From the NCBI GenBank assembly GCA_040289515.1, contig PSLI01000039.1, forward strand, positions 1 through 17,223: a stretch of DNA of 17,223 nt, in the 5' to 3' direction. A program made the translations under genes and the position numbers. The DNA comes from Candidatus Sysuimicrobiota bacterium (GTDB lineage: Bacteria > Sysuimicrobiota > Sysuimicrobiia > Sysuimicrobiales > Sysuimicrobiaceae). Shown one piece after another: positions 8,333 to 17,223 of the stretch (positions are counted from its first letter, which is position 1; every line of letters starts with the position of its first letter). The notes under the pieces are model-generated. The model had not been told where the DNA came from. It searched no databases and was given only the letters and a program-made list of their open reading frames with translations.

Positions 8333-9913
8333 TCACTCCAGCCGGTCGTAGGCCACCAGGGTCAGGAAGTCCACGAACTCCTCCTGCAGCACGAGCCGGT
8401 CCAGGATCTCCGCAGCCTCCTGCAGGCGCGAGCCGGGCCCAGCCCCCAGGCGCTCCAGCTCCCGGTCCCGCACCTGCCGGTACAGCTGCGCGTCCACGGG
8501 CCTCCCGTCCTCCATCTTCGCACCGTGGTGGATCCACTGCCACAGCTGGGCCCGGCAGATCTCCGCGGTGGCCGTGTCCTCCATGAGGTTGTAGATGGCC
8601 GCCGCCCCCGTGCCCTGCAGCCACGCGTCCAGGTACTGCAGCGCCACGCTCACGTTGTTCACCACCCCCGCCTCCGTGATGGTCCCGCCGGGGACCCGCA
8701 CGTCCAGCAGGTGGCTGGCCAGCACCTGCACATCCTCCCGCAGCCGGTGCTTCTGGTGGGGCCGGCCTGCCAGCAGCCGCGTGAAGGGCTCCATGGCTAC
8801 GGGCACCAGGTCGGGGTGCGCCACCCAGGTGCCGTCGAAGCCGTCCGCGGACTCCCGCTCCTTGTCCTCCCGCACCTTGGCCAGGGCGCGCTCGTTCACC
8901 TCCGGGTCTTTGCGGCTGGGGATGAAGGCCGCCATGCCCCCGATGGCGTGAGCCCCGCGGCGGTGGCAGGTCTTCACCAGCAGCTCCGTGTACGCCCGCA
9001 TGAAGGGCACGGTCATGGTCACCTGCGCACGATCCGGCAGCACGAAGTCCGGTCGGTGCCGGAACTTCTTGATCACGCTGAAGATGTAGTCCCACCGCCC
9101 CGCGTTCAACCCGGAGGCGTGGTCCCGCAACTCGTACAGGATCTCGTCCATCTCGAAGGCGGCCAGGATGGTCTCGATGAGTACCGTGGCGCGGATGGTG
9201 CCCCGCGGGATCCCCAGGGCGTCTTGGGCGTACTGGAACACGTGGTTCCACAGCCGGGCTTCCAGGTGGCTTTCCACCTTGGGCAGGTAGAAGTAGGGCC
9301 CGGTGCCCCGCTCCAGCAGCTGTCGGGCGTTGTGGAAGAAGTACAGCCCGAAGTCAAAGAGAGCACCGGAGATCGGCTGGCCGTCCACCCGCACGTGGCG
9401 CTCCACCAGGTGCCAGCCCCGCGGGCGGACCAGCAGGGTGGCCACCGCCTCGTTGAGCCGGTAGTGCTTGCCCTCCGGGCTGACGTACTGGAGGGTACGC
9501 CGGACGGCGTCCATCAGGTTCTTCTGCCCCACCACCACGTTGCTCCACGTGGGCGACAGGGCGTCCTCGAAGTCCGCCATGAACACCTGCGCGCCTGAGT
9601 TGAGGGCGTTGATCATCATCTTGCGGTCCACCGGCCCCGTGATCTCCACACGGCGGTCCTGCAGGTCGGGGGGTGCGGGCGCCACCTTCCACTCCGCCTC
9701 CCGCACCCACCGGGTCTCCGGAAGGAAGTCCGGGAGGGCACCCGCCAGCAGCTCGCCCTGACGCTGCGCCCGCCGGTCCAGAAGGCTCCGCCGCGTGCTC
9801 TCGAACTCCCGGTGCAGCCCCGCTACGAACTCCAAAGCCTCCGGGGTTAGCACCTCCGCCTGCACCGACCCCGCGTCCGCCAGCACCTCAACCCCACGTG
9901 AAACGACCTCCAT
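8333..9913 (-). CDS. aceB: Malate synthase A
   Basis: [41 protein letters not shown] and LMED.ATAEI motifs; ~526 aa. ATG at 9913 preceded by GGAGGTGAGG. Confidence 0.96.
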
Positions 9914-9993
9914 CGGCCTCACCTCCACTGCGCGGCGCCCGGATCGCCGCGGGGCCGAAGCCGCCGCGGACGCTAGCCACCGTTCTCGCTGCC

Positions 9994-10022
9994 AACGTAG
10001 CCCCCCGCCGCGGGGGTGTCAA
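9994..10022 (-). promoter_or_regulatory. sigma70-type promoter of aceB-glcDEF
   Basis: Minus strand reads TTGACA (10022-10017), 17 nt, TACGTT (9999-9994). Confidence 0.7.
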
Positions 10023-10031
10023 CGCGTGGAA

Positions 10032-10056
10032 GGATTTTCTACAATGTGGAAAAGCC
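10032..10056. promoter_or_regulatory. Putative IclR operator overlapping the iclR -10 box
   Basis: AT-rich imperfect palindrome GGA-TTTTCTACAATGTGGAAAA-GCC between divergent aceB and iclR; contains TACAAT (10040-10045). Confidence 0.65.
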
Positions 10057-10866
10057 ATGTCCCGCGGCCGCAAGCCCTATCACCGTCGCGCTCACGCCGA
10101 CCGCGCGGTCCGGGCTCTGGTGCGTGGCCTGGCCCTCCTGGAACTCCTGGCGGAGGATTGCCCGCTGACCCTCTCTACCCTCAGCCGCAGGGCGCGGCTG
10201 CCTGTGAGCACCACCCACCGCCTCCTGGAGACCCTCCGTCGTCGCGGCTTCGTTCAGGCGGTAGAAAACGCCCGGTACCGGGTAGGCGTGCGGGCCTTCG
10301 AGGTGGGCATGGCCTTCCTGCGCTCCCACCACCTGCCGGAGGTGGCCCGGCCGGTCATGGCGGCTTTGGTGGACCGCGTCAGGGAGACCGCCAACCTGGC
10401 GGTGCGCGACGGCTCGGAGGCCGTGTACGTGCTGCAGGTGGAAAGCGAGCGGATGCTGCGCCTGTTTGCGCAACCCGGCGCCCGGCACCCCCTGTACTGC
10501 ACGGGTGTGGGGAAGGTGCTGGTGGCGTGGGAACCCGAAGAGCACGTGCGGGCCCTGCTGGGCCCCGGACCGCTTTCGCGCTTCACCCCTCGCACCCTCA
10601 CGGACCCGGAGGCGGTGCTTCGGGAGCTGCGGGCGGTCCGCGCTCGCGGGTACGCGGTGGACCGGGAGGAACGCGAATCCGGCGTCCGCTGCGTGGCCGC
10701 CCCCGTGCGGGACGCCACAGGCCGCGTGGTGGCGGCCCTATCCGTGTCCGCGCCCGCCAGCCGCCTGCCGCACCGCCGCATCCCACAGGTGGCGGCCCTG
10801 GTGGTGTCCGCCGCCCAGCGCATCAGCCGCCACCTGGGGTTTTCCCCTGCGCGGCCGGGCAGGTAA
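10057..10866 (+). CDS. IclR-family transcriptional regulator
   Basis: HTH (RGLALLELL...LPVSTTHRLLETL), ETANLA, PLYCTGVGK, TP.T.TD and GYAVDREE...GVRCVAAPV motifs; ATG at 10057. Confidence 0.95.
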   Translation: MSRGRKPYHRRAHADRAVRALVRGLALLELLAEDCPLTLSTLSRRARLPVSTTHRLLETLRRRGFVQAVENARYRVGVRAFEVGMAFLRSHHLPEVARPVMAALVDRVRETANLAVRDGSEAVYVLQVESERMLRLFAQPGARHPLYCTGVGKVLVAWEPEEHVRALLGPGPLSRFTPRTLTDPEAVLRELRAVRARGYAVDREERESGVRCVAAPVRDATGRVVAALSVSAPASRLPHRRIPQVAALVVSAAQRISRHLGFSPARPGR

Positions 10867-10908
10867 CAACTTCCCGCCGCGCCCGGACCTTGCCAAGGCG
10901 GCGGTCGC

Positions 10909-10931
10909 GGATTTCCACGTCTCGGAAAACC
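10909..10931. promoter_or_regulatory. Second putative IclR operator, upstream of the TRAP remnant
   Basis: GGATTTCCACGTCTCGGAAAACC has the same TTTCY-N7-GGAAA geometry as the 10032-10056 site. Confidence 0.45.
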
Positions 10932-11069
10932 GCACCGCAGAAGAGAACGGCGGCCTTGTCCCCGAACCCCCTAACCGCGGGGCATCGGATTCGGCCGACG
11001 GGAAGGGGGGATGTAGGCTCAGTCGGCACCGGTCCTGCACCATACCCGAACGAAAGAGAGGGGGGTGGC

Positions 11070-11303
11070 ATGGGCAGCCCAGCCAAGAAGGCCTACAACC
11101 GCCAGAAGTCTCGGCGGATCTCACGGCGCACCTTCCTCAAGTCGGCCGTGGCAGCCGGTGCCGCCGCCGCCACGGCCACGCTGCTCCGGGTGCACATCGC
11201 CCACGCCCAGCCGCCCACTGTGTGGAAGATTCAGTCCACCTGGCCCACGCGGGACATCTTCCACGAGGTGGTGGTGAGCCTGGCGCAGCGGGTCCATGAG
11301 ATG
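11070..11303 (+). pseudogene. 5' fragment of a Tat-exported TRAP substrate-binding protein (DctP/TakP-like)
   Basis: Tat signal SRRTFLK...AHA|Q, then WKIQSTWP...LAQRVHEM. Recognisable similarity stops at about 11303. Confidence 0.75.
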
Positions 11304-11724
11304 CGCGGTGTTCGCACGCCTGGGCGGGTCCCGGGTCATCGAGCAGCTCATCGCGGGCCTCGGCCTGACGAGCCACCAGTTCCTCTGGCTGATGCTGATC
11401 ATCGTGTTCCTGCTGGGCTGGCCCCTGGAGTGGACGGAGATCATCATCATCTTCATGCCCCTGTTCTGGCCCCTGGCCCCGGCGTACGGCATCGACCCGG
11501 TCTGGCTTGGGGTGCTGGTGGCCGTCAACCTCCAGACGGCCTTCCTGAGCCCGCCGGTGGCCATGGCCGCCTTCTACATCAAGGGCGTGGCACCTCCGGG
11601 CGTGCTGCTGTCCGACATCTGGTGGGGCATGATGCCCTTCCTGGGCCTCCAAATACTGGCGCTGCTGGTGGTGTACTTCTTCCCGCAGCCGGCCCTGTGG
11701 TCGCCGAGCGTGTTGATCCAGTAG
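11304..11724 (+). pseudogene. 3' fragment of a TRAP large permease (DctM)
   Basis: AVFARLGG...FLLGWPLEWTEIIIIFMP...GIDPVW...VNLQTAFLSPP...IWWGMMPF...FPQPALW. Only ~140 aa, in a different frame from the dctP fragment. Confidence 0.8.
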
Positions 11725-11742
11725 GCCCCGGCCGGCGGGGTG

Positions 11743-12816
11743 CTACTGGGCGCCCACCTCGCCGTGCACCTCCACCGGCTCCCGCGGGGGCGCGGGGGTC
11801 TCTGCGGGGGGCCGTGCGGGAGCCTCCCGCAGGAATGCCGCTGCCTGCTCCGGGGAGATCACGTTGATGTAGAAGCCGGTCCCCCACTCGAACCCCGCCA
11901 CCGAGGTCAGCCGGGGCATGATCTCGATGTGCCAGTGGTACAGGTGCTCCGGCAGCGGCACGTACGGGGCGCTGTGCACGATGAAGTTGTACGGTGGGTT
12001 GTCCAAAGCCGCGTGCAGCTTGTACAGGGTGGCCCGCAGGGCGTCCGCCAGCTCCTGCAGCTCCTCGTCCTCGAGGCGGCCGAAGGAGGCCTGGTGGAAC
12101 TTGGGGAGGATCCACGTTTCGAAGGGGAACCGGGAGGCGTACGGCTCGTAGGCTAAGAAGACGTCGTTCTCGTACACCACCCGCTCGCCCCGCTGCAGCT
12201 CCGCGGACACCACGTCGCAGTACAGGCACCGGGCGTGTTCTACGAAGTAGCGGCGCGCCACCTCCAGCTCCTCCTCCGCCCGGCGGGGGATCACGGGCAG
12301 CGCGATCAGCTGGGAGTGCGGGTGGGCCAGGCTTGCCCCCGCGGTGCGGCCGTGGTTGCGGAACAGAGTTGCGTACTGAAAGCGGGGATCCTGGTCCAGG
12401 TCCACGTACCGCTCCCGGTACGCGCGGAGGACCTCCACCACCTGGTCGCCGGGCAGCAAGCCCAGGTGGGTGTCGTGCTCGGGGGTCTCCACGATCACCT
12501 CGTGGGCGCCCACGGCGTCCATGCGCTCGAACAGGGGTCCACCCTCCGCCTGCAGCTCCCCCTCGATCCGCAGGGCAGGGTACCGGTTGGGCACCACCCG
12601 CACCCGCCACCCCGGGCCGTCGCGGGGACCAGCGGTACGCACCGCGTAGATCTCGGGCGGCGTCTGGTCCTCCCGGCCCGGGCAGAACGGGCACCGGTCT
12701 CGGTCCGCGGCCACCAGGGGCTCCCGTCCACGGGCGAAGTCCGTAGGGCGGGACGCCCGCTCCGTGGCAATGATCACCCACCGACCCGAGACCACGTCCC
12801 GCCGCAGCTCAGGCAT
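11743..12816 (-). CDS. galT: GalT-family (HIT superfamily) hexose-1-phosphate nucleotidyltransferase
   Basis: MPELRRD...WVIIATER..RP, CPFCPG.E, VVPNRYPAL, G.HEVIVETP.H, AGASLAHPHSQ and AGFEWGTG motifs. GAGGAGG RBS; alternative GTG start at 12819. Confidence 0.9.
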   Translation of the reverse strand: MPELRRDVVSGRWVIIATERASRPTDFARGREPLVAADRDRCPFCPGREDQTPPEIYAVRTAGPRDGPGWRVRVVPNRYPALRIEGELQAEGGPLFERMDAVGAHEVIVETPEHDTHLGLLPGDQVVEVLRAYRERYVDLDQDPRFQYATLFRNHGRTAGASLAHPHSQLIALPVIPRRAEEELEVARRYFVEHARCLYCDVVSAELQRGERVVYENDVFLAYEPYASRFPFETWILPKFHQASFGRLEDEELQELADALRATLYKLHAALDNPPYNFIVHSAPYVPLPEHLYHWHIEIMPRLTSVAGFEWGTGFYINVISPEQAAAFLREAPARPPAETPAPPREPVEVHGEVGAQ

Positions 12817-12846: not shown

Positions 12847-14316
12847 TCAGGAGGGTACCGCACCGCGTTTGCTCCGCGCCAGCCTGTACAGGTCCAGGTA
12901 GCGGGTGGCCGCGCACTCCCACGAGAAGTCCGCGGCCATGCCCGCCCGAACCAGCCGCCCCCACACGGCCGGGTCCCGGTACGCGGCCAGGGCCCTGCTT
13001 ACGGCACCCCAAAAGGCTTCCACGGAGTACTCCTCGAACACGAACCCGTTGGCCGTGCCCCTCTCCAGGGCCTCTGGGGTGGCGTCCACCACGCTGTCGG
13101 CCAGCCCGCCGGTCCTGCGCACCACGGGGACGGTCCCGTACCGCAGGCTGTACAGCTGGTTGAGGCCGGAGGGTTCGTACCGGGAGGGCATCAAAAACGC
13201 GTCGCAGCCGGCCTCGATCCAGTGCGCGAGGCGCTCGTCGAAGCCGATACGCACCGCCACCCACCCGGGGTGCCGCCGTTCGGCCTCCCGCAGCTGTGCC
13301 TCGTAGCGGGGTTCGCCGGTCCCCAACAGCACCAGCTGGGCACCGGAGTCCGGGAACCTGTCCGCGCACGCCACCACTAGGTCCACGCCCTTCTGTTCCA
13401 CCAGCCGCGACACCATCCCGAACAGAACCACGCGGGGCTCCTCGCGCAACCCCACCTCGGGCTGCAGTGCCGCCTTGCACACCGTCTTCCCGGACAGGTC
13501 CTCCGGGCCGTATCGGGCGGGCAGGTATGGGTCGTTCCGAGGGTCCCACACCGAGTAGTCTACGCCGTTCAGGATGCCGTACAGGTCGGCGGCGCGCTGG
13601 CGCAGGAGCCCGTCTAGCCCGCAACCCAGCTCCGGGGTTTGGATCTCTTTCGAATACGTCTCGCTCACCGTGTTGAGGATGTCGGCGAACACCAACCCAC
13701 CCTTGAGCAAGTTCACCTGTCCCCAGAACTCAAGGTACTCGAGGTCGAACAAGTGATCGGGTAACCCCAATACGGAGAAGCGGTCTGCGGGGAAAAGGCC
13801 CTGGTAGGCAAGGTTGTGCACCGTCAAGACGGTGGCGATGCCGTCCCAGTCCGCACGGCCGCACGTGCGGAGGTACACGGGCACGAGCGCCGTCTGCCAG
13901 TCGTTGCAGTGCACCACGTGAGGCTTCCAGTCCGTGCGGTCCAGCCACGCCAGCACCGCGCGGCAAAAGAAGGCGAACCGTTCGAGGTTGTCCGGATAGT
14001 CCTGGCCGCCTTCCCCGTACAGCCCCGGGCGGTCGAAGTACGGGGCGTGTTCCACGAACCACACCCGGGGTGCGCCGGAGGGGTCTTCTGCCTCCCACAG
14101 GCGCGCCTCACCCCGCAGCATGCCCACGACAACCTCCACCCTGCCTGCCTCCCTCAGCGCCCACCCGCCGGCTTTGACCGCTCGGTTCAAAGGCGTGACC
14201 ACCCGCACGTCCACGCCGGCTCTGGCCAGCGCCTTGGGGAGCGCGCTGCTCACGTCCGCAAGGCCTCCGGTTTTCGAAAACGGCGCCACTTCCGAGGACG
14301 CAAACAGCACGCGCAA
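12847..14316 (-). CDS. glgA: Glycogen synthase (GT5)
   Basis: SEVAPFSKTGGLADV, HCNDWQT, TVHNLAYQG, GILNGVD, SRLVEQKG and MPSRYEPSGL.QL motifs. Probable TTG start at 14316 after GGTGAGG. Confidence 0.95.
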   Translation of the reverse strand: MRVLFASSEVAPFSKTGGLADVSSALPKALARAGVDVRVVTPLNRAVKAGGWALREAGRVEVVVGMLRGEARLWEAEDPSGAPRVWFVEHAPYFDRPGLYGEGGQDYPDNLERFAFFCRAVLAWLDRTDWKPHVVHCNDWQTALVPVYLRTCGRADWDGIATVLTVHNLAYQGLFPADRFSVLGLPDHLFDLEYLEFWGQVNLLKGGLVFADILNTVSETYSKEIQTPELGCGLDGLLRQRAADLYGILNGVDYSVWDPRNDPYLPARYGPEDLSGKTVCKAALQPEVGLREEPRVVLFGMVSRLVEQKGVDLVVACADRFPDSGAQLVLLGTGEPRYEAQLREAERRHPGWVAVRIGFDERLAHWIEAGCDAFLMPSRYEPSGLNQLYSLRYGTVPVVRRTGGLADSVVDATPEALERGTANGFVFEEYSVEAFWGAVSRALAAYRDPAVWGRLVRAGMAADFSWECAATRYLDLYRLARSKRGAVPS

Positions 14317-14357
14317 TGCCTCACCCCACCGTACACCGCCGAAAACACGAAAATAAC

Positions 14358-14386
14358 TTGACCCCGCCGCCCTCACCTGCCAGTAT
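14358..14386 (+). promoter_or_regulatory. Possible sigma70-type promoter reading toward the peptide gene
   Basis: A-rich tract (14341-14357), TTGACC, 17 nt ending in TGC, then CAGTAT (weak -10). Confidence 0.35.
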
Positions 14387-14542
14387 CGCGCCCGAAGGCG
14401 TACGCTGGCGGTGCAAGCGGTACCAGGCCTGACGAGGATCCTCGTCGGCAGCTGAGTTGTCGTGCATGGCGGCGTACAGCCGCCGCTACCAAGTATGTGC
14501 GCCGGGACTCTGTCCCGTAGACCTCTTTCCGTGGTCGCCACG

Positions 14543-14571
14543 ATCGTAGAGCAAGTTTTGTGCCGAGTCAA
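14543..14571 (-). promoter_or_regulatory. sigma70-type promoter for glgA-galT with a sigma54-like motif in its spacer
   Basis: Minus strand TTGACT-N17-TACGAT. The spacer contains CGGCAC-AAAAC-TTGCT (GG-N10-GC). Confidence 0.6.
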
Positions 14572-14650
14572 GCAACGGGAGGATTCCCGTGAACGAACGG
14601 CGCTAACTCTCGATCGGTACGAAATCTGGAAAGGAAAGGAGGGATTACAG

Positions 14651-14737
14651 ATGGGCAAGTGGGGAAAGCTCGTTCTGCTGCTCTCGACGCTGGCTTCGCT
14701 GCTGCTCTCGGCCGCGGCCAACGGCAAGTGGGGCTAG
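14651..14737 (+). CDS. 28-aa small peptide MGKWGKLVLLLSTLASLLLSAAANGKWG (putative signalling-peptide precursor)
   Basis: AAAGGAGG (14635-14642) lies 8 nt before the ATG. Basic N-terminus, hydrophobic core, AAA, short polar tail ending KWG; directly upstream of a membrane HD-GYP gene. Confidence 0.8.
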   Translation: MGKWGKLVLLLSTLASLLLSAAANGKWG

Positions 14738-14798
14738 GGCTCTGAGTCCGGGTCCAGGCTTCCGAACCCTAAACAGAGCTCGGGTTAAGCGCAGCGCC

Positions 14799-14814
14799 TG
14801 GCACGCCGATTGCT
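14799..14814 (+). promoter_or_regulatory. sigma54 (-24/-12) promoter of the HD-GYP gene
   Basis: TGGCAC-GCCGA-TTGCT matches the TGGCAC-N5-TTGCW consensus and ends 22 nt before ATG 14837. Confidence 0.7.
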
Positions 14815-14836
14815 CCCTGCTCCGGGGAGGGAGCCC

Positions 14837-16222
14837 ATGCGTGGGGTGTTGCGCTTAATCATTTCGCTTGCCGGCCTTTGCTTCGTCGGTACGCTTTTCC
14901 ACGCCCTCGCCATCTTGCGAGCGTCGCCGGTCCAGATTTCTCCCCTTGGCGCTGCTGCTTTCATGACGGCTACGTTCCTCGCCATCGTTGCGGAACTCAA
15001 GCCTACCCGCCTACCCTTTGGGACAGAAGTGTTCGAAGTGACCCTCAGTACGGCGGTGGCCCTTCCCGTTCTTATCCTCGTAGGTTGGCCTTTCGCATTT
15101 CTGCTGATGGCCTTCGCCGTGGCGGTCTCCGACATCCAGTTGGCAAAGCCTTGGTACAAAACCCTCTACAATGCAGCCAACAGTGCTCTGTCCGTGTGGA
15201 TCGCGGGCAACGTCTATGGGCTCCTGACGGGGTCTATGGGCCTCGAGTCCTTTAAGACGTCAACCCTTGCTGCCGCTGCAGCCAGCGGCCTCACCTTCAG
15301 CCTCACCAACACGCTGCTTCTGGTGCTGCCCATCGCCACTGTTCAAGGCCTACCCTACCGCACCGTTTTCCCCCCTTATTTCAAGGCGGTTGCCCCCTTT
15401 TATGGGGGCGTCACCTCCCTCTCCGTGGCCGTTGCAGTCTTGTGGCAGCTAAATCCGTTCAGCGTCGTCCTCCTCTTGCCCGCCCTGTTGACGACGCGCC
15501 TCGCGTACCACCACTACGTTCGCCTCCGCCTGGAAACCGACAACTTCGTCGAATCCCTGGCCGACGCCGTTGACCTCCGAGACCCCTACACAGCCGGCCA
15601 TTCGGTCCGCGTAGCCGAACTGGCCCACGCCCTGGGCAAACGGCTAGGGCGCGCCGGAGATGAGTTGTGGGCGCTGCGCTCCATCGCGCGGGTCCACGAT
15701 GTGGGAAAGCTCACCGTGCCCGACGCTGTCCTGCTCAAGGCCGGCGTTCTGACGCCCGAGGAGTTCTCACAGATGAAAGGACACGTGGAGGCCGGGGTGC
15801 GCATCCTGCAGCACATCAGCCTGCACCGGAGCGCCCTGGACATCCTGGCCCAGCACCACGAACGCTTGGACGGCTCCGGCTACCCCCACGGCCTGCGGGG
15901 CGATGAGATCATCTTCCCCGCCCGCATTTTAGCCGTGGCGGATGCTTACGACGCCATGACCACCGACCGCCCCTACCGGCCCGCCAAGACCCCGGAGGAG
16001 GCCGTGCGGGAACTCTACCGGGTCGCGGGAAAGCAGTACGATCTGAGTGTGGTTCGCGCCCTGGAGGACGAGCTGCTGGCCAGGGGCGTGTTGAAGACGC
16101 CCGTGGTTCCCGCGGCCCTGCAGGCCGCCGCCCGCGCCGAGCCGGAACAGGAACCGGATGCTGCTGGTACCGCTCGCGTTGTCCATTTTCCTCGGGTGGG
16201 CTCGGGGCGGAAGCCTCCGTAA
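14837..16222 (+). CDS. Membrane-anchored HD-GYP c-di-GMP phosphodiesterase with a multi-TM N-terminal sensor (possibly MASE9-like)
   Basis: ~225-aa hydrophobic N-terminus (about 7 TM; KTLYNAA motif), then RDPYTAGHS.RV, HDVGK, HHERLDGSGYP and AVADAYDAMTTDRPYR. GGAGG RBS before ATG 14837. Confidence 0.92.
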   Translation: MRGVLRLIISLAGLCFVGTLFHALAILRASPVQISPLGAAAFMTATFLAIVAELKPTRLPFGTEVFEVTLSTAVALPVLILVGWPFAFLLMAFAVAVSDIQLAKPWYKTLYNAANSALSVWIAGNVYGLLTGSMGLESFKTSTLAAAAASGLTFSLTNTLLLVLPIATVQGLPYRTVFPPYFKAVAPFYGGVTSLSVAVAVLWQLNPFSVVLLLPALLTTRLAYHHYVRLRLETDNFVESLADAVDLRDPYTAGHSVRVAELAHALGKRLGRAGDELWALRSIARVHDVGKLTVPDAVLLKAGVLTPEEFSQMKGHVEAGVRILQHISLHRSALDILAQHHERLDGSGYPHGLRGDEIIFPARILAVADAYDAMTTDRPYRPAKTPEEAVRELYRVAGKQYDLSVVRALEDELLARGVLKTPVVPAALQAAARAEPEQEPDAAGTARVVHFPRVGSGRKPP

Positions 16223-16943
16223 CCTCCTGGCCGCGGACGTGCGCCACCCGTGGATCCCCCTGGCGGCCCTGGGCCTGCAGCTGGCCGTCTTCGAGCCGAC
16301 CGGGCCCCTGCCCCTGCTGAGGGGCCAGCAACTGGCCGTGCACGTGGCCTCCTACGTTCTGCTGGGCTGGTTTTTGTGGTTCAACCGCCACCTGCCCGGG
16401 ATGTGGCTGGTGGCCCTGGGCTTCGCCTCCAACGCTGCCGCCATCGTGGCCAACGGAGGCCTCATGCCCGCCTCGGAAGAGGCTCTGCGCAAGGCCGGCC
16501 GGTGGGCGCTGCTGCAGGCGGCCGGGACCTACAACAACTCCACGGTGATCGGCCCCCACACCAGGCTGTGGTTCCTGGGGGACGTCTTTGCGCTTCCCGA
16601 GGGCGTCCCGCTGGCCAACGTGTTCAGCCTGGGGGATGTGTTCCTGGCCCTGGGCGCTCTGATCCTGGTGCCGGCTGCCATGGGTGCGCGCCCTGTGGGC
16701 CGCAGGGCCGTCGTCGCGGGTGCGGTCGCCGCCGCCCTGCTCGTGGGCTTCCTTCTTGCCAACCTCCAGGTCCCCGAGGCCCTCCGCCGAACCGGATTCC
16801 GTCCGCACGGGGCTGGGTCCATCCCGAAAGTTCAACGGGCCAGCACCAGCACCAGGTCGTTGACGTTGGTCCCCGTGGGCCCCGTGCGCACCAGGCCGCC
16901 TGCGGCCTGGAAGAAGGCGTACGAGTCGTTCGCGGCCAGGTAA
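16158..16943 (+). CDS. DUF5317-like membrane protein
   Basis: RGG.L.NL, WFN..LPG, G..SN...I.ANGG.MP, T.L.FLGDV and VFSLGDVFL motifs recognised as DUF5317. Overlaps the HD-GYP 3' end by 65 nt. Confidence 0.8.
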   Translation: MLLVPLALSIFLGWARGGSLRNLLAADVRHPWIPLAALGLQLAVFEPTGPLPLLRGQQLAVHVASYVLLGWFLWFNRHLPGMWLVALGFASNAAAIVANGGLMPASEEALRKAGRWALLQAAGTYNNSTVIGPHTRLWFLGDVFALPEGVPLANVFSLGDVFLALGALILVPAAMGARPVGRRAVVAGAVAAALLVGFLLANLQVPEALRRTGFRPHGAGSIPKVQRASTSTRSLTLVPVGPVRTRPPAAWKKAYESFAAR

Positions 16944-17223
16944 CGCTCGGCTTCCATTCCCAGGCTGCGCCCGAGCTGCACCGTGCCCCCGTGGGCGAAC
17001 GCGCCCGCGGCGTCCGTAGGGCCGTCCGCACCGTCCGTGGCAAAGCCGGCCACGAGGACCCCACTCAGGTTTTCCAGGCCGACAGCCGCGGCCAGCGCCA
17101 GCTCCTGGTTTCTTCCGCCCCGCCCGGGTCCCCGGATGGTGACCGTAGTCTCCCCCCCGAAGATCAGGCACGCTGGCTTGCGCACCGGGCGGTCCTGCAG
17201 CACCTCCTCGCGCGCCAGCGCCA
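16832..17223 (-). CDS. Glycerate kinase type 2 (MOFRL family), C-terminal part; 5' end outside the window
   Basis: GGETTV...G.GGRNQELAL, TDG.DGPTDAAG, NDSY.FF and TGPTGTNVNDL motifs. Confidence 0.93.
   Translation of the reverse strand, partial: ALAREEVLQDRPVRKPACLIFGGETTVTIRGPGRGGRNQELALAAAVGLENLSGVLVAGFATDGADGPTDAAGAFAHGGTVQLGRSLGMEAERYLAANDSYAFFQAAGGLVRTGPTGTNVNDLVLVLAR

Follow-up and report, generated by a model that had tools for sequence, protein, structure and literature searches.

The window analyzed here is a 17,223-nucleotide (nt) stretch of contig PSLI01000039.1 from a Candidatus Sysuimicrobiota bacterium, and open reading frame (ORF) and Pfam scans place on its plus strand the three co-oriented genes that an initial annotation had singled out as a peptide-signaling module with cyclic di-GMP (c-di-GMP) output: a 28-residue ORF, a gene for a multi-transmembrane HD-GYP protein, and an overlapping DUF5317 gene. 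The small gene (14651..14737) encodes a predicted single-pass membrane micro-protein, MGKWGKLVLLLSTLASLLLSAAANGKWG, with an M-x-K-W N terminus, a hydrophobic core, and a G-A-x-x-K-W tail, and it is preceded by a strong ribosome-binding site (GGAGG at 14638-14642, 8 nt 5' of the ATG). The HD-GYP gene (14837..16222) encodes a polytopic membrane phosphodiesterase composed of a MASE9-like N-terminal domain and HD_5; its ORF could be extended to 470 codons (14810-16222) by an alternative TTG start at 14810, and the ATG at 14837, preceded by GGGAGGGAG, is the likelier start. The DUF5317 gene (16158..16943) is a 261-codon ORF that shares 65 nt with the HD-GYP gene; its family match runs from 16236 to 16670. 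In our best reading, the module belongs to a widespread type of membrane signaling set, as yet unnamed, of which copies occur across many phyla of bacteria.

The small ORF is a real gene, unannotated until now. The conservation at homologous loci on which the initial annotation had staked its proposal was found in the taxonomic order of the window, where the ORF is kept in 11 of 11 loci that have both DUF5317 and HD-GYP, the window included. These loci were obtained by a DUF5317 profile search of 61 related genomes (among them the window's own), which detected DUF5317 in 30; 20 of the 30 places were re-fetched with longer flanks, and G001, G005, and G007, which are cut by contig ends, were omitted along with six weaker ones. 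A membrane HD-GYP homologue is present in 10 of the 20, and all ten have the small ORF preceding the pair. The order of the genes is peptide, HD-GYP, DUF5317 in the window's family and peptide, DUF5317, HD-GYP in three other families of the order. Within two genera, the pN/pS value (nonsynonymous versus synonymous polymorphism) of the peptide ORF is 0.1 to 0.24, third-position change dominates (4/4/14 and 2/2/10 variable columns at the three codon positions), and identity in the ORF is 79 to 94% versus 33 to 62% in flanks of 60 to 70 nt. A profile of 26 peptides, run against the six-frame translation of the 1.99-Mb genome, recovered the small ORF at an E value of 1.1e-7, with the next match at 1.7; a profile built from 15 peptides of other phyla also ranked the window's ORF first in its own genome (E 0.0015, next 0.053).

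The same micro-protein family is found far outside the order. The wider survey, with one genome per species, identified 488 relatives among 530 pattern matches, and 80 loci were kept; Chloroflexota, Actinomycetota, Bipolaricaulota, Thermotogae, and other phyla are represented. The window itself is placed in the CSP1-3/Sysuimicrobiota group by its named relatives, Ca. Tepidifontimicrobium and Ca. Sysuimicrobium. Inspection by eye found small ORFs of like build before 13 of 19 HD-GYP-DUF5317 pairs. The common build consists of an M-[KR]-W start, a hydrophobic helix, and [AS]-G-A-x-x-[KR]-[WF] followed by one to three residues; all of 30 aligned peptides have the Ala and, at the basic position, either K or R; the W is present in at least 90% of them, and Cys occurs in none. 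A family member lies within 3.5 kb of DUF5317 in 60 of the 80 loci, a figure that leans on its own hits because the peptide profile was iterated on the same loci that it counts; of the 20 loci lacking a match, at least 5 end at a contig edge where the gene would lie. Strand is shared with DUF5317 in 71 of 73 profile matches, and 13 of the 60 peptide-bearing loci carry two copies. No Pfam or NCBIfam model matches the family, and the 69 clusters that match it at an E value of ≤0.01 in a collection of 5.8 billion proteins are all unnamed or called "hypothetical." This would be a conserved component of a c-di-GMP circuit that routine annotation has missed because it is only about 30 codons long. 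A search for longer peptide forms gave a lone match, P0220, which resembles a read-through from DUF2269 into a peptide gene, not a true fusion, and was set aside as weak evidence in either direction. A Cys-rich variant of the tail (G-A-P-I-C-x-x-C) occurs in L075 (766-939) and L096 (3315-3437), where the peptides adjoin DUF5317 and a histidine kinase of about 250 residues that has no sensor domain of its own (L075 1846-2601; L096 4360-5097).

The HD-GYP domain of the polytopic protein is intact, as originally described. It matches Pfam HD_5 (PF13487) at residues 249 to 414 with an E value of 1.2e-37 (129.8 bits against a cut-off of 27.2), and in an alignment with the solved HD-GYP structure 4mcw (4mcw_A; E 7.8e-32), both its HDxGK and its HHERxDGxGYP motif are present. 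The second-best match in the PDB is the HD-GYP protein 5z7c, which is specific for cyclic GMP-AMP (cGAMP); c-di-GMP, rather than, e.g., 3'3'-cGAMP, is the presumed substrate of the window's enzyme. The approximately 240 N-terminal residues are hydrophobic. The region is described here as MASE9-like (PF20972): the MASE9 cut-off of 24.3 bits is passed by the orthologues L036 (28.7) and L039 (29.0), and six further HD-GYP neighbors of DUF5317 match MASE9 at an E value of ≤1e-5. Pfam detected neither HisKA nor HATPase domains in this polytopic protein, which carries HD_5 instead.

The third gene product matches DUF5317 (PF17248), to which the initial annotation had likened it: residues 27 to 171 match with an E value of 2.1e-34 (119.2 bits, cut-off 25; the genome search gave 120 bits), and the family comprises 6,323 clusters at 50% identity. 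Its profile also finds matches in Thermotoga maritima and Thermus thermophilus. An AlphaFold2 model built from 116 sequences reached a predicted local distance difference test (pLDDT) score of 94.2 and a predicted template modeling (pTM) score of 0.87. It contains helices at residues 3-15, 32-44, 58-75, 82-98, and 158-174, to which 182-201 is added in the window's family, and a mixed loop domain at 99-157. Residues N76, G88, N92, P104, D142, S157, G159, and D160 are invariant in the 116 sequences. No solved protein has a fold like that of the model: Foldseek against the PDB gave no match at an E value of ≤0.001 (best, 1.9), a wide VIA-align search reached a Z score of 6.0 with helical hairpins only, and the ESM Atlas held no usable match once PF17248 clusters were excluded. 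Among 14 long forms scanned from the best 150 of the 6,323 clusters, there were one DUF5317-PAS-GAF-GGDEF protein, one DUF5317-MFS-PAS-GGDEF protein, and six DUF5317-MFS proteins (one with a partial MFS match). Examples of these fusions (PAS-GAF-GGDEF, MFS-PAS-GGDEF, and MFS alone) are P0031, P0123, P0062, P0108, P0128, P0143, and P0149.

Both the conservation of the triad and its tie to c-di-GMP, which the initial annotation had put forward, are borne out in relatives. An HD-GYP, GGDEF, or EAL gene is located within 3.5 kb of DUF5317 in 50 of the 80 loci (HD-GYP in 29; GGDEF, whether or not EAL is present, in 21). Loci with c-di-GMP domains number only about a dozen in the 2 Mb of the window's genome, so that a random 7.5-kb stretch would by estimate hold one about 5% of the time. 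According to Pfam, the neighbors of DUF5317 include MASE9-HD-GYP, membrane GGDEF-HD-GYP, GAF-GGDEF, and GAF-GGDEF-EAL proteins, and further two sensor-less histidine kinases and one SpoIIE phosphatase. In addition, an Rfam scan found a c-di-GMP class I or II aptamer in 20 of the 80 loci. The riboswitch is on the peptide strand in all 20; from its end to the estimated start of the peptide, the distance is 17 to 42 nt in 19 loci and 179 nt in the other. In a quarter of the loci, this position makes the micro-protein gene the direct target of a c-di-GMP sensor RNA, and placement of the riboswitch before the peptide gene suggests intracellular feedback. Glycosyltransferase genes (PMT-like, GT2) are also seen directly 3' of DUF5317 in some Actinomycetota and Chloroflexota (L072, L078 3988-5731; L080 4211-5200).

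The explanation that we favor, with a confidence near the middle of the scale, is that the micro-protein and DUF5317 are the input or regulator part of a MASE9-type HD-GYP phosphodiesterase. It is built on the readiness with which DUF5317 pairs and fuses with diverse output domains, the placement of the riboswitches, the conservation of the peptide tail across phyla, and the proposal of the MASE9 authors that a ligand is bound within the membrane (bioRxiv 10.1101/2021.11.05.467447). The flanks of the peptides average 3.0 lysine plus arginine residues before the helix versus 1.17 after it, an asymmetry that points to an N-in, C-out topology; by the same counts, loops 16-31, 76-81, and 175-183 of DUF5317 are predicted inside and domain 99-157 outside. 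The 28-residue product would accordingly in this model stay in the membrane as a single-pass protein, with its N terminus inside and its G-A-x-x-K-W tail outside, and would work with DUF5317, a membrane protein of five to six predicted helices whose conserved, slightly acidic loop domain would also be outside, so placed that the conserved tail and the conserved domain could meet on the outer face. Together, the two proteins may set the rate of c-di-GMP degradation through the neighboring HD-GYP enzyme, with the amount of micro-protein as the adjustable element. In other phyla, c-di-GMP riboswitches would switch the micro-protein gene directly; in the window, the gene would have its own promoter region, and HD-GYP and DUF5317 would be expressed from a sigma-54-type promoter. 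Seen in this way, the module looks like an internal signaling device rather than a cell-to-cell signal.

The initial annotation had instead drawn an analogy to Agr, in which DUF5317 matures the peptide and the secreted product controls the phosphodiesterase. In a form of this idea, the hydrophobic part of the micro-protein exports it, DUF5317 or signal peptidase cuts after G-A, and MASE9 senses the released x-G-K-W-x tail from outside, so that c-di-GMP breakdown would come under a quorum type of control. The peptides do have the layout of a signal peptide, with a basic N terminus, a hydrophobic core, small residues, and an invariant Ala just before the tail, and the A-A-A followed by N-G-K-W-G of the window fits the arrangement expected for cleavage by signal peptidase I, which requires small residues at positions -1 and -3 and excludes Pro at +1. 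Residues around G-K-W vary among close relatives (NGKWG, SGKWG, FGKWG), tandem peptide genes occur in the 13 loci mentioned above, the tail and the conserved domain of DUF5317 are both predicted outside, and the invariant residues of DUF5317 include Asp, Ser, and Asn, with two L/x-G-D motifs. Against a secreted signal, however, the core of the tail is conserved across phyla and shows neither the diversification nor the strain variability of a secreted signal, and several variants have Pro right after G-A (GAPETTGW, GAPVNWGS), unlike a general signal-peptidase site. The peptides lack Cys, as noted; neither Pfam (for the DUF5317 protein) nor Pfam and NCBIfam (for the peptides) gave a match to AgrB or AgrD, DUF5317 matching PF17248 only; its model has no protease-like fold match; and none of the 14 ORFs scanned in the window appeared to encode an exporter or peptidase. 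Moreover, riboswitch control by intracellular c-di-GMP, as seen in 20 of 80 loci, agrees with an internal loop, and DUF5317 is combined with many outputs and supplies the membrane module in its fusions with GGDEF proteins. The Agr-type interpretation is therefore not upheld, and a secreted signal appears improbable to us.

A bolder variant would make DUF5317 a new membrane peptidase, with an outward cluster of Asp, Ser, and Asn, that frees x-G-K-W-x as a diffusible signal read by MASE9. GxGD-type aspartyl intramembrane proteases, such as prepilin peptidase and presenilin, have two catalytic Asp residues in membrane helices, the second within GxGD, and share a fold. DUF5317 carries L-G-D (D142) and S-x-G-D (D160) 18 residues apart, and GxGD-type proteases are absent among its fold matches. 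We consider this variant distinctly improbable; if true, it would mean a peptide quorum signal wired directly to c-di-GMP breakdown in many uncultured phyla.

A more serious competitor, which we rate as unlikely but worth weighing, is that DUF5317 and the micro-protein together make up a separate membrane machine, e.g., a transporter, a channel, or a lipid or envelope enzyme with a small subunit, and thus an output, with the c-di-GMP enzymes regulating it or supplying a local pool. MFS fusions account for 7 of the 14 long DUF5317 forms scanned, glycosyltransferase genes follow DUF5317 in the three loci given above, and a riboswitch on the peptide would be ordinary control of an effector. However, the pair occurs with HD-GYP, GGDEF, EAL, histidine kinase, and PP2C proteins, which is the usual pattern of an input module; DUF5317 is N terminal in the PAS-GAF-GGDEF fusion, as input modules are; and Pfam and NCBIfam detected no c-di-GMP receptor domain in DUF5317 or the peptide.

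Several observations nevertheless weigh against an input or regulator role, and some of them favor such a machine. Of the 60 peptide-bearing loci, 17 have no c-di-GMP domain within 3.5 kb, so the peptide and DUF5317 may have an independent function as a pair. Those polar residues that are invariant in DUF5317 (two Asp, Ser, three Asn) fit the core of an enzyme or transporter as well as that of a sensor, and they persist without an adjacent peptide or c-di-GMP gene in ten loci of the order that form family f4 (L042-L051). In these ten loci, neither a micro-protein gene nor an HD-GYP homologue was found, and DUF5317 is preceded, with stop/start overlap, by a zinc-ribbon-like ORF of about 100 residues (M-R-C-P-x-C-G ... 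Y-Y-C-x-x-C-G). Residues 1 to 245 of the window's own HD-GYP protein are too diverged to score against MASE9, with no match up to an E value of 10. The feedback logic is carried over from relatives, because the window lacks a riboswitch: in an Rfam search of 14000-15000 with E values up to 1, the only match was a chance-level viral frameshift element (E 0.14), and a c-di-GMP riboswitch was likewise not found in five family-level relatives. Contact between the three proteins has no direct support here; prediction of a complex of DUF5317 with the peptide, run without controls, scored 0.14 and 0.12 against a mark of 0.32 and speaks neither for binding nor against it. The self-referential count of peptide-bearing loci belongs to the same side of the balance.

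Regulation at the window is suggested by its promoter motifs. A search for the sigma-54 pattern TGGCAC-N5-TTGCW (GG at -24, GC at -12) gave 2 matches in the window versus 0.06 expected. One, TGGCACGCCGATTGCT (14799-14814, plus strand), lies 22 nt before the HD-GYP ATG and is retained by four of five family-level relatives with no more than one mismatch; L033, the remaining relative, gave no plus-strand match and has a weaker form at the same place in its sequence. The other, CGGCACAAAACTTGCT (14550-14565, minus strand), points towards glgA, is kept with at most one mismatch in all five, and coincides with an invariant leader box; a plus-strand sigma-54 motif considered at this conserved box was rejected, as the motif is on the minus strand. 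The genome encodes rpoN (Sigma54_DBD match at C33). Since a sigma-54-type motif is located between the peptide and HD-GYP genes, the three genes probably do not make up a single simple operon, which corrects the initial annotation. HD-GYP and DUF5317 probably form a sigma-54 unit, judging from the motif, and the peptide gene would then need its own promoter. A candidate of sigma-70 type (14358..14386, plus strand; TTGACC, 17 nt, CAGTAT) can be read from the sequence; the consensus scan did not list it, and its TTGAC is invariant in the six-locus family-level alignment. That the peptide gene is set apart from the two larger ones has its parallel in the riboswitch loci, and the family-wide conservation of the divergent sigma-54-type pair suggests that sigma-54 controls glycogen synthase together with the c-di-GMP module.

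Between the promoter candidate and the peptide gene is a five-codon mini-ORF (GTG-N-E-R-R-stop; 14589..14606, plus strand) behind GGGAGGA. It is the diverged counterpart of M-N-K-W-G-stop, which has its own Shine-Dalgarno sequence in four of five family-level relatives and is located 60 to 100 nt before the peptide gene (L036 2523-2540, L034 3834-3851, L035 2544-2561, L032 3748-3765). The mini-ORF may be what is left of a tandem copy of the peptide gene, a regulatory upstream ORF, or a protein-binding repeat. Copies of the DNA word AAGTGGGG are found in relatives at the mini-ORF and also at the start and the end of the peptide ORF. This repetition, and the position of the ORF in a 233-bp gap between divergent sigma-54-type motifs, where activator sites are expected, would suit a small ORF that is not a protein gene at all but a leader or attenuator, or DNA whose AAGTGGGG words serve as an activator-binding region for the flanking promoters. 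The chance of this seems to us close to negligible: the ORF is conserved at the protein level with mostly synonymous change, the family also occurs in phyla that lack these promoters, where its genes precede or follow DUF5317 and lie behind riboswitches, and gene callers had already listed the 69 clusters. The RNA fold of the spacer at 14735-14840 is unremarkable (z-score, -0.74), a terminator scan of 14250-14900 found none, and no sequencing run was listed for 14300-16950.

The module is flanked on one side by glgA on the minus strand (start near 14316), a divergent neighbor in six of six family-level loci, and on the other by a convergent MOFRL-family gene. The last 40 or so codons of the DUF5317 ORF overlap the latter and have no protein-level conservation; the overlap covers 112 nt (16832-16943), and in relatives this tail matches other frames only, which leaves the true C terminus of DUF5317 uncertain. 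The remaining genes of the window belong to haem synthesis, glycolate oxidase, malate synthase, and sugar enzymes. A 690-codon ORF (9795-11867, plus strand) without a Pfam match may be a spurious high-GC frame or a new gene.

The initial annotation knew of no description of such a system, and the literature searched contained no published account of DUF5317 (PF17248, IPR035168) or of the micro-protein module. Membrane HD-GYP and GGDEF/EAL enzymes with uncharacterized membrane domains are very common, and the module offers a lead on what such enzymes sense. A large DUF5317 family and a micro-protein family beside c-di-GMP enzymes, with a riboswitch in a quarter of the loci, yield a testable hypothesis for both the input side of the enzyme and its feedback loop.

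Among known systems, Agr quorum sensing combines the precursor AgrD, the peptidase AgrB, and the receptor kinase AgrC. The window's module is similar in that a small peptide gene adjoins two polytopic membrane proteins, one with a signaling enzyme domain, but it differs in having no Cys for a thiolactone, no AgrB or AgrD match, an HD-GYP output in place of a kinase, and a tail that is conserved across phyla. Another parallel is provided by small single-pass membrane regulators of sensor enzymes, as in MgrB-PhoQ, SafA-PhoQ, and MzrA-EnvZ. With 28 residues and one hydrophobic stretch, the window's peptide agrees with MgrB-type regulators in size and in its single helix; both are encoded beside, or controlled by, the pathway they affect, and the riboswitches in relatives give a similar feedback logic. 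Unlike those regulators, the micro-protein belongs to an unrelated sequence family, its partner is a c-di-GMP enzyme and not a histidine kinase, its binding is only proposed, and DUF5317 is invariably present as a third conserved membrane protein.

MASE9-HD-GYP phosphodiesterases include Thermotoga maritima TM1467 and Streptomyces venezuelae HdgA (bioRxiv 10.1101/2021.11.05.467447; HdgA in PMC6205966). Like them, the window's enzyme carries an intact HD-GYP domain behind an integral-membrane N-terminal one, and orthologues of it pass the MASE9 cut-off, but its own N-terminal domain has diverged too far to score. The main text of the former paper mentions neither DUF5317 nor a small protein, and gene neighborhoods may be displayed in its supplements; the HD-GYP and hdgA passages of the latter likewise mention no DUF5317 or adjacent small ORF. 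From the c-di-GMP side, a counterpart is the CD1980.2 family of Clostridioides difficile, 58-residue, often multicopy membrane-associated proteins behind class I c-di-GMP riboswitches, for which the authors report no homologues in other species (bioRxiv 10.64898/2026.06.10.731418). Those proteins differ from ours in length and, as far as that account goes, in having no DUF5317 or HD-GYP partner described, and the comparison is one of descriptions, not of sequences. Both sets are nevertheless small, membrane associated, often multicopy, and encoded directly behind c-di-GMP riboswitches, and we treat the CD1980.2 proteins as an analogue of the micro-protein.

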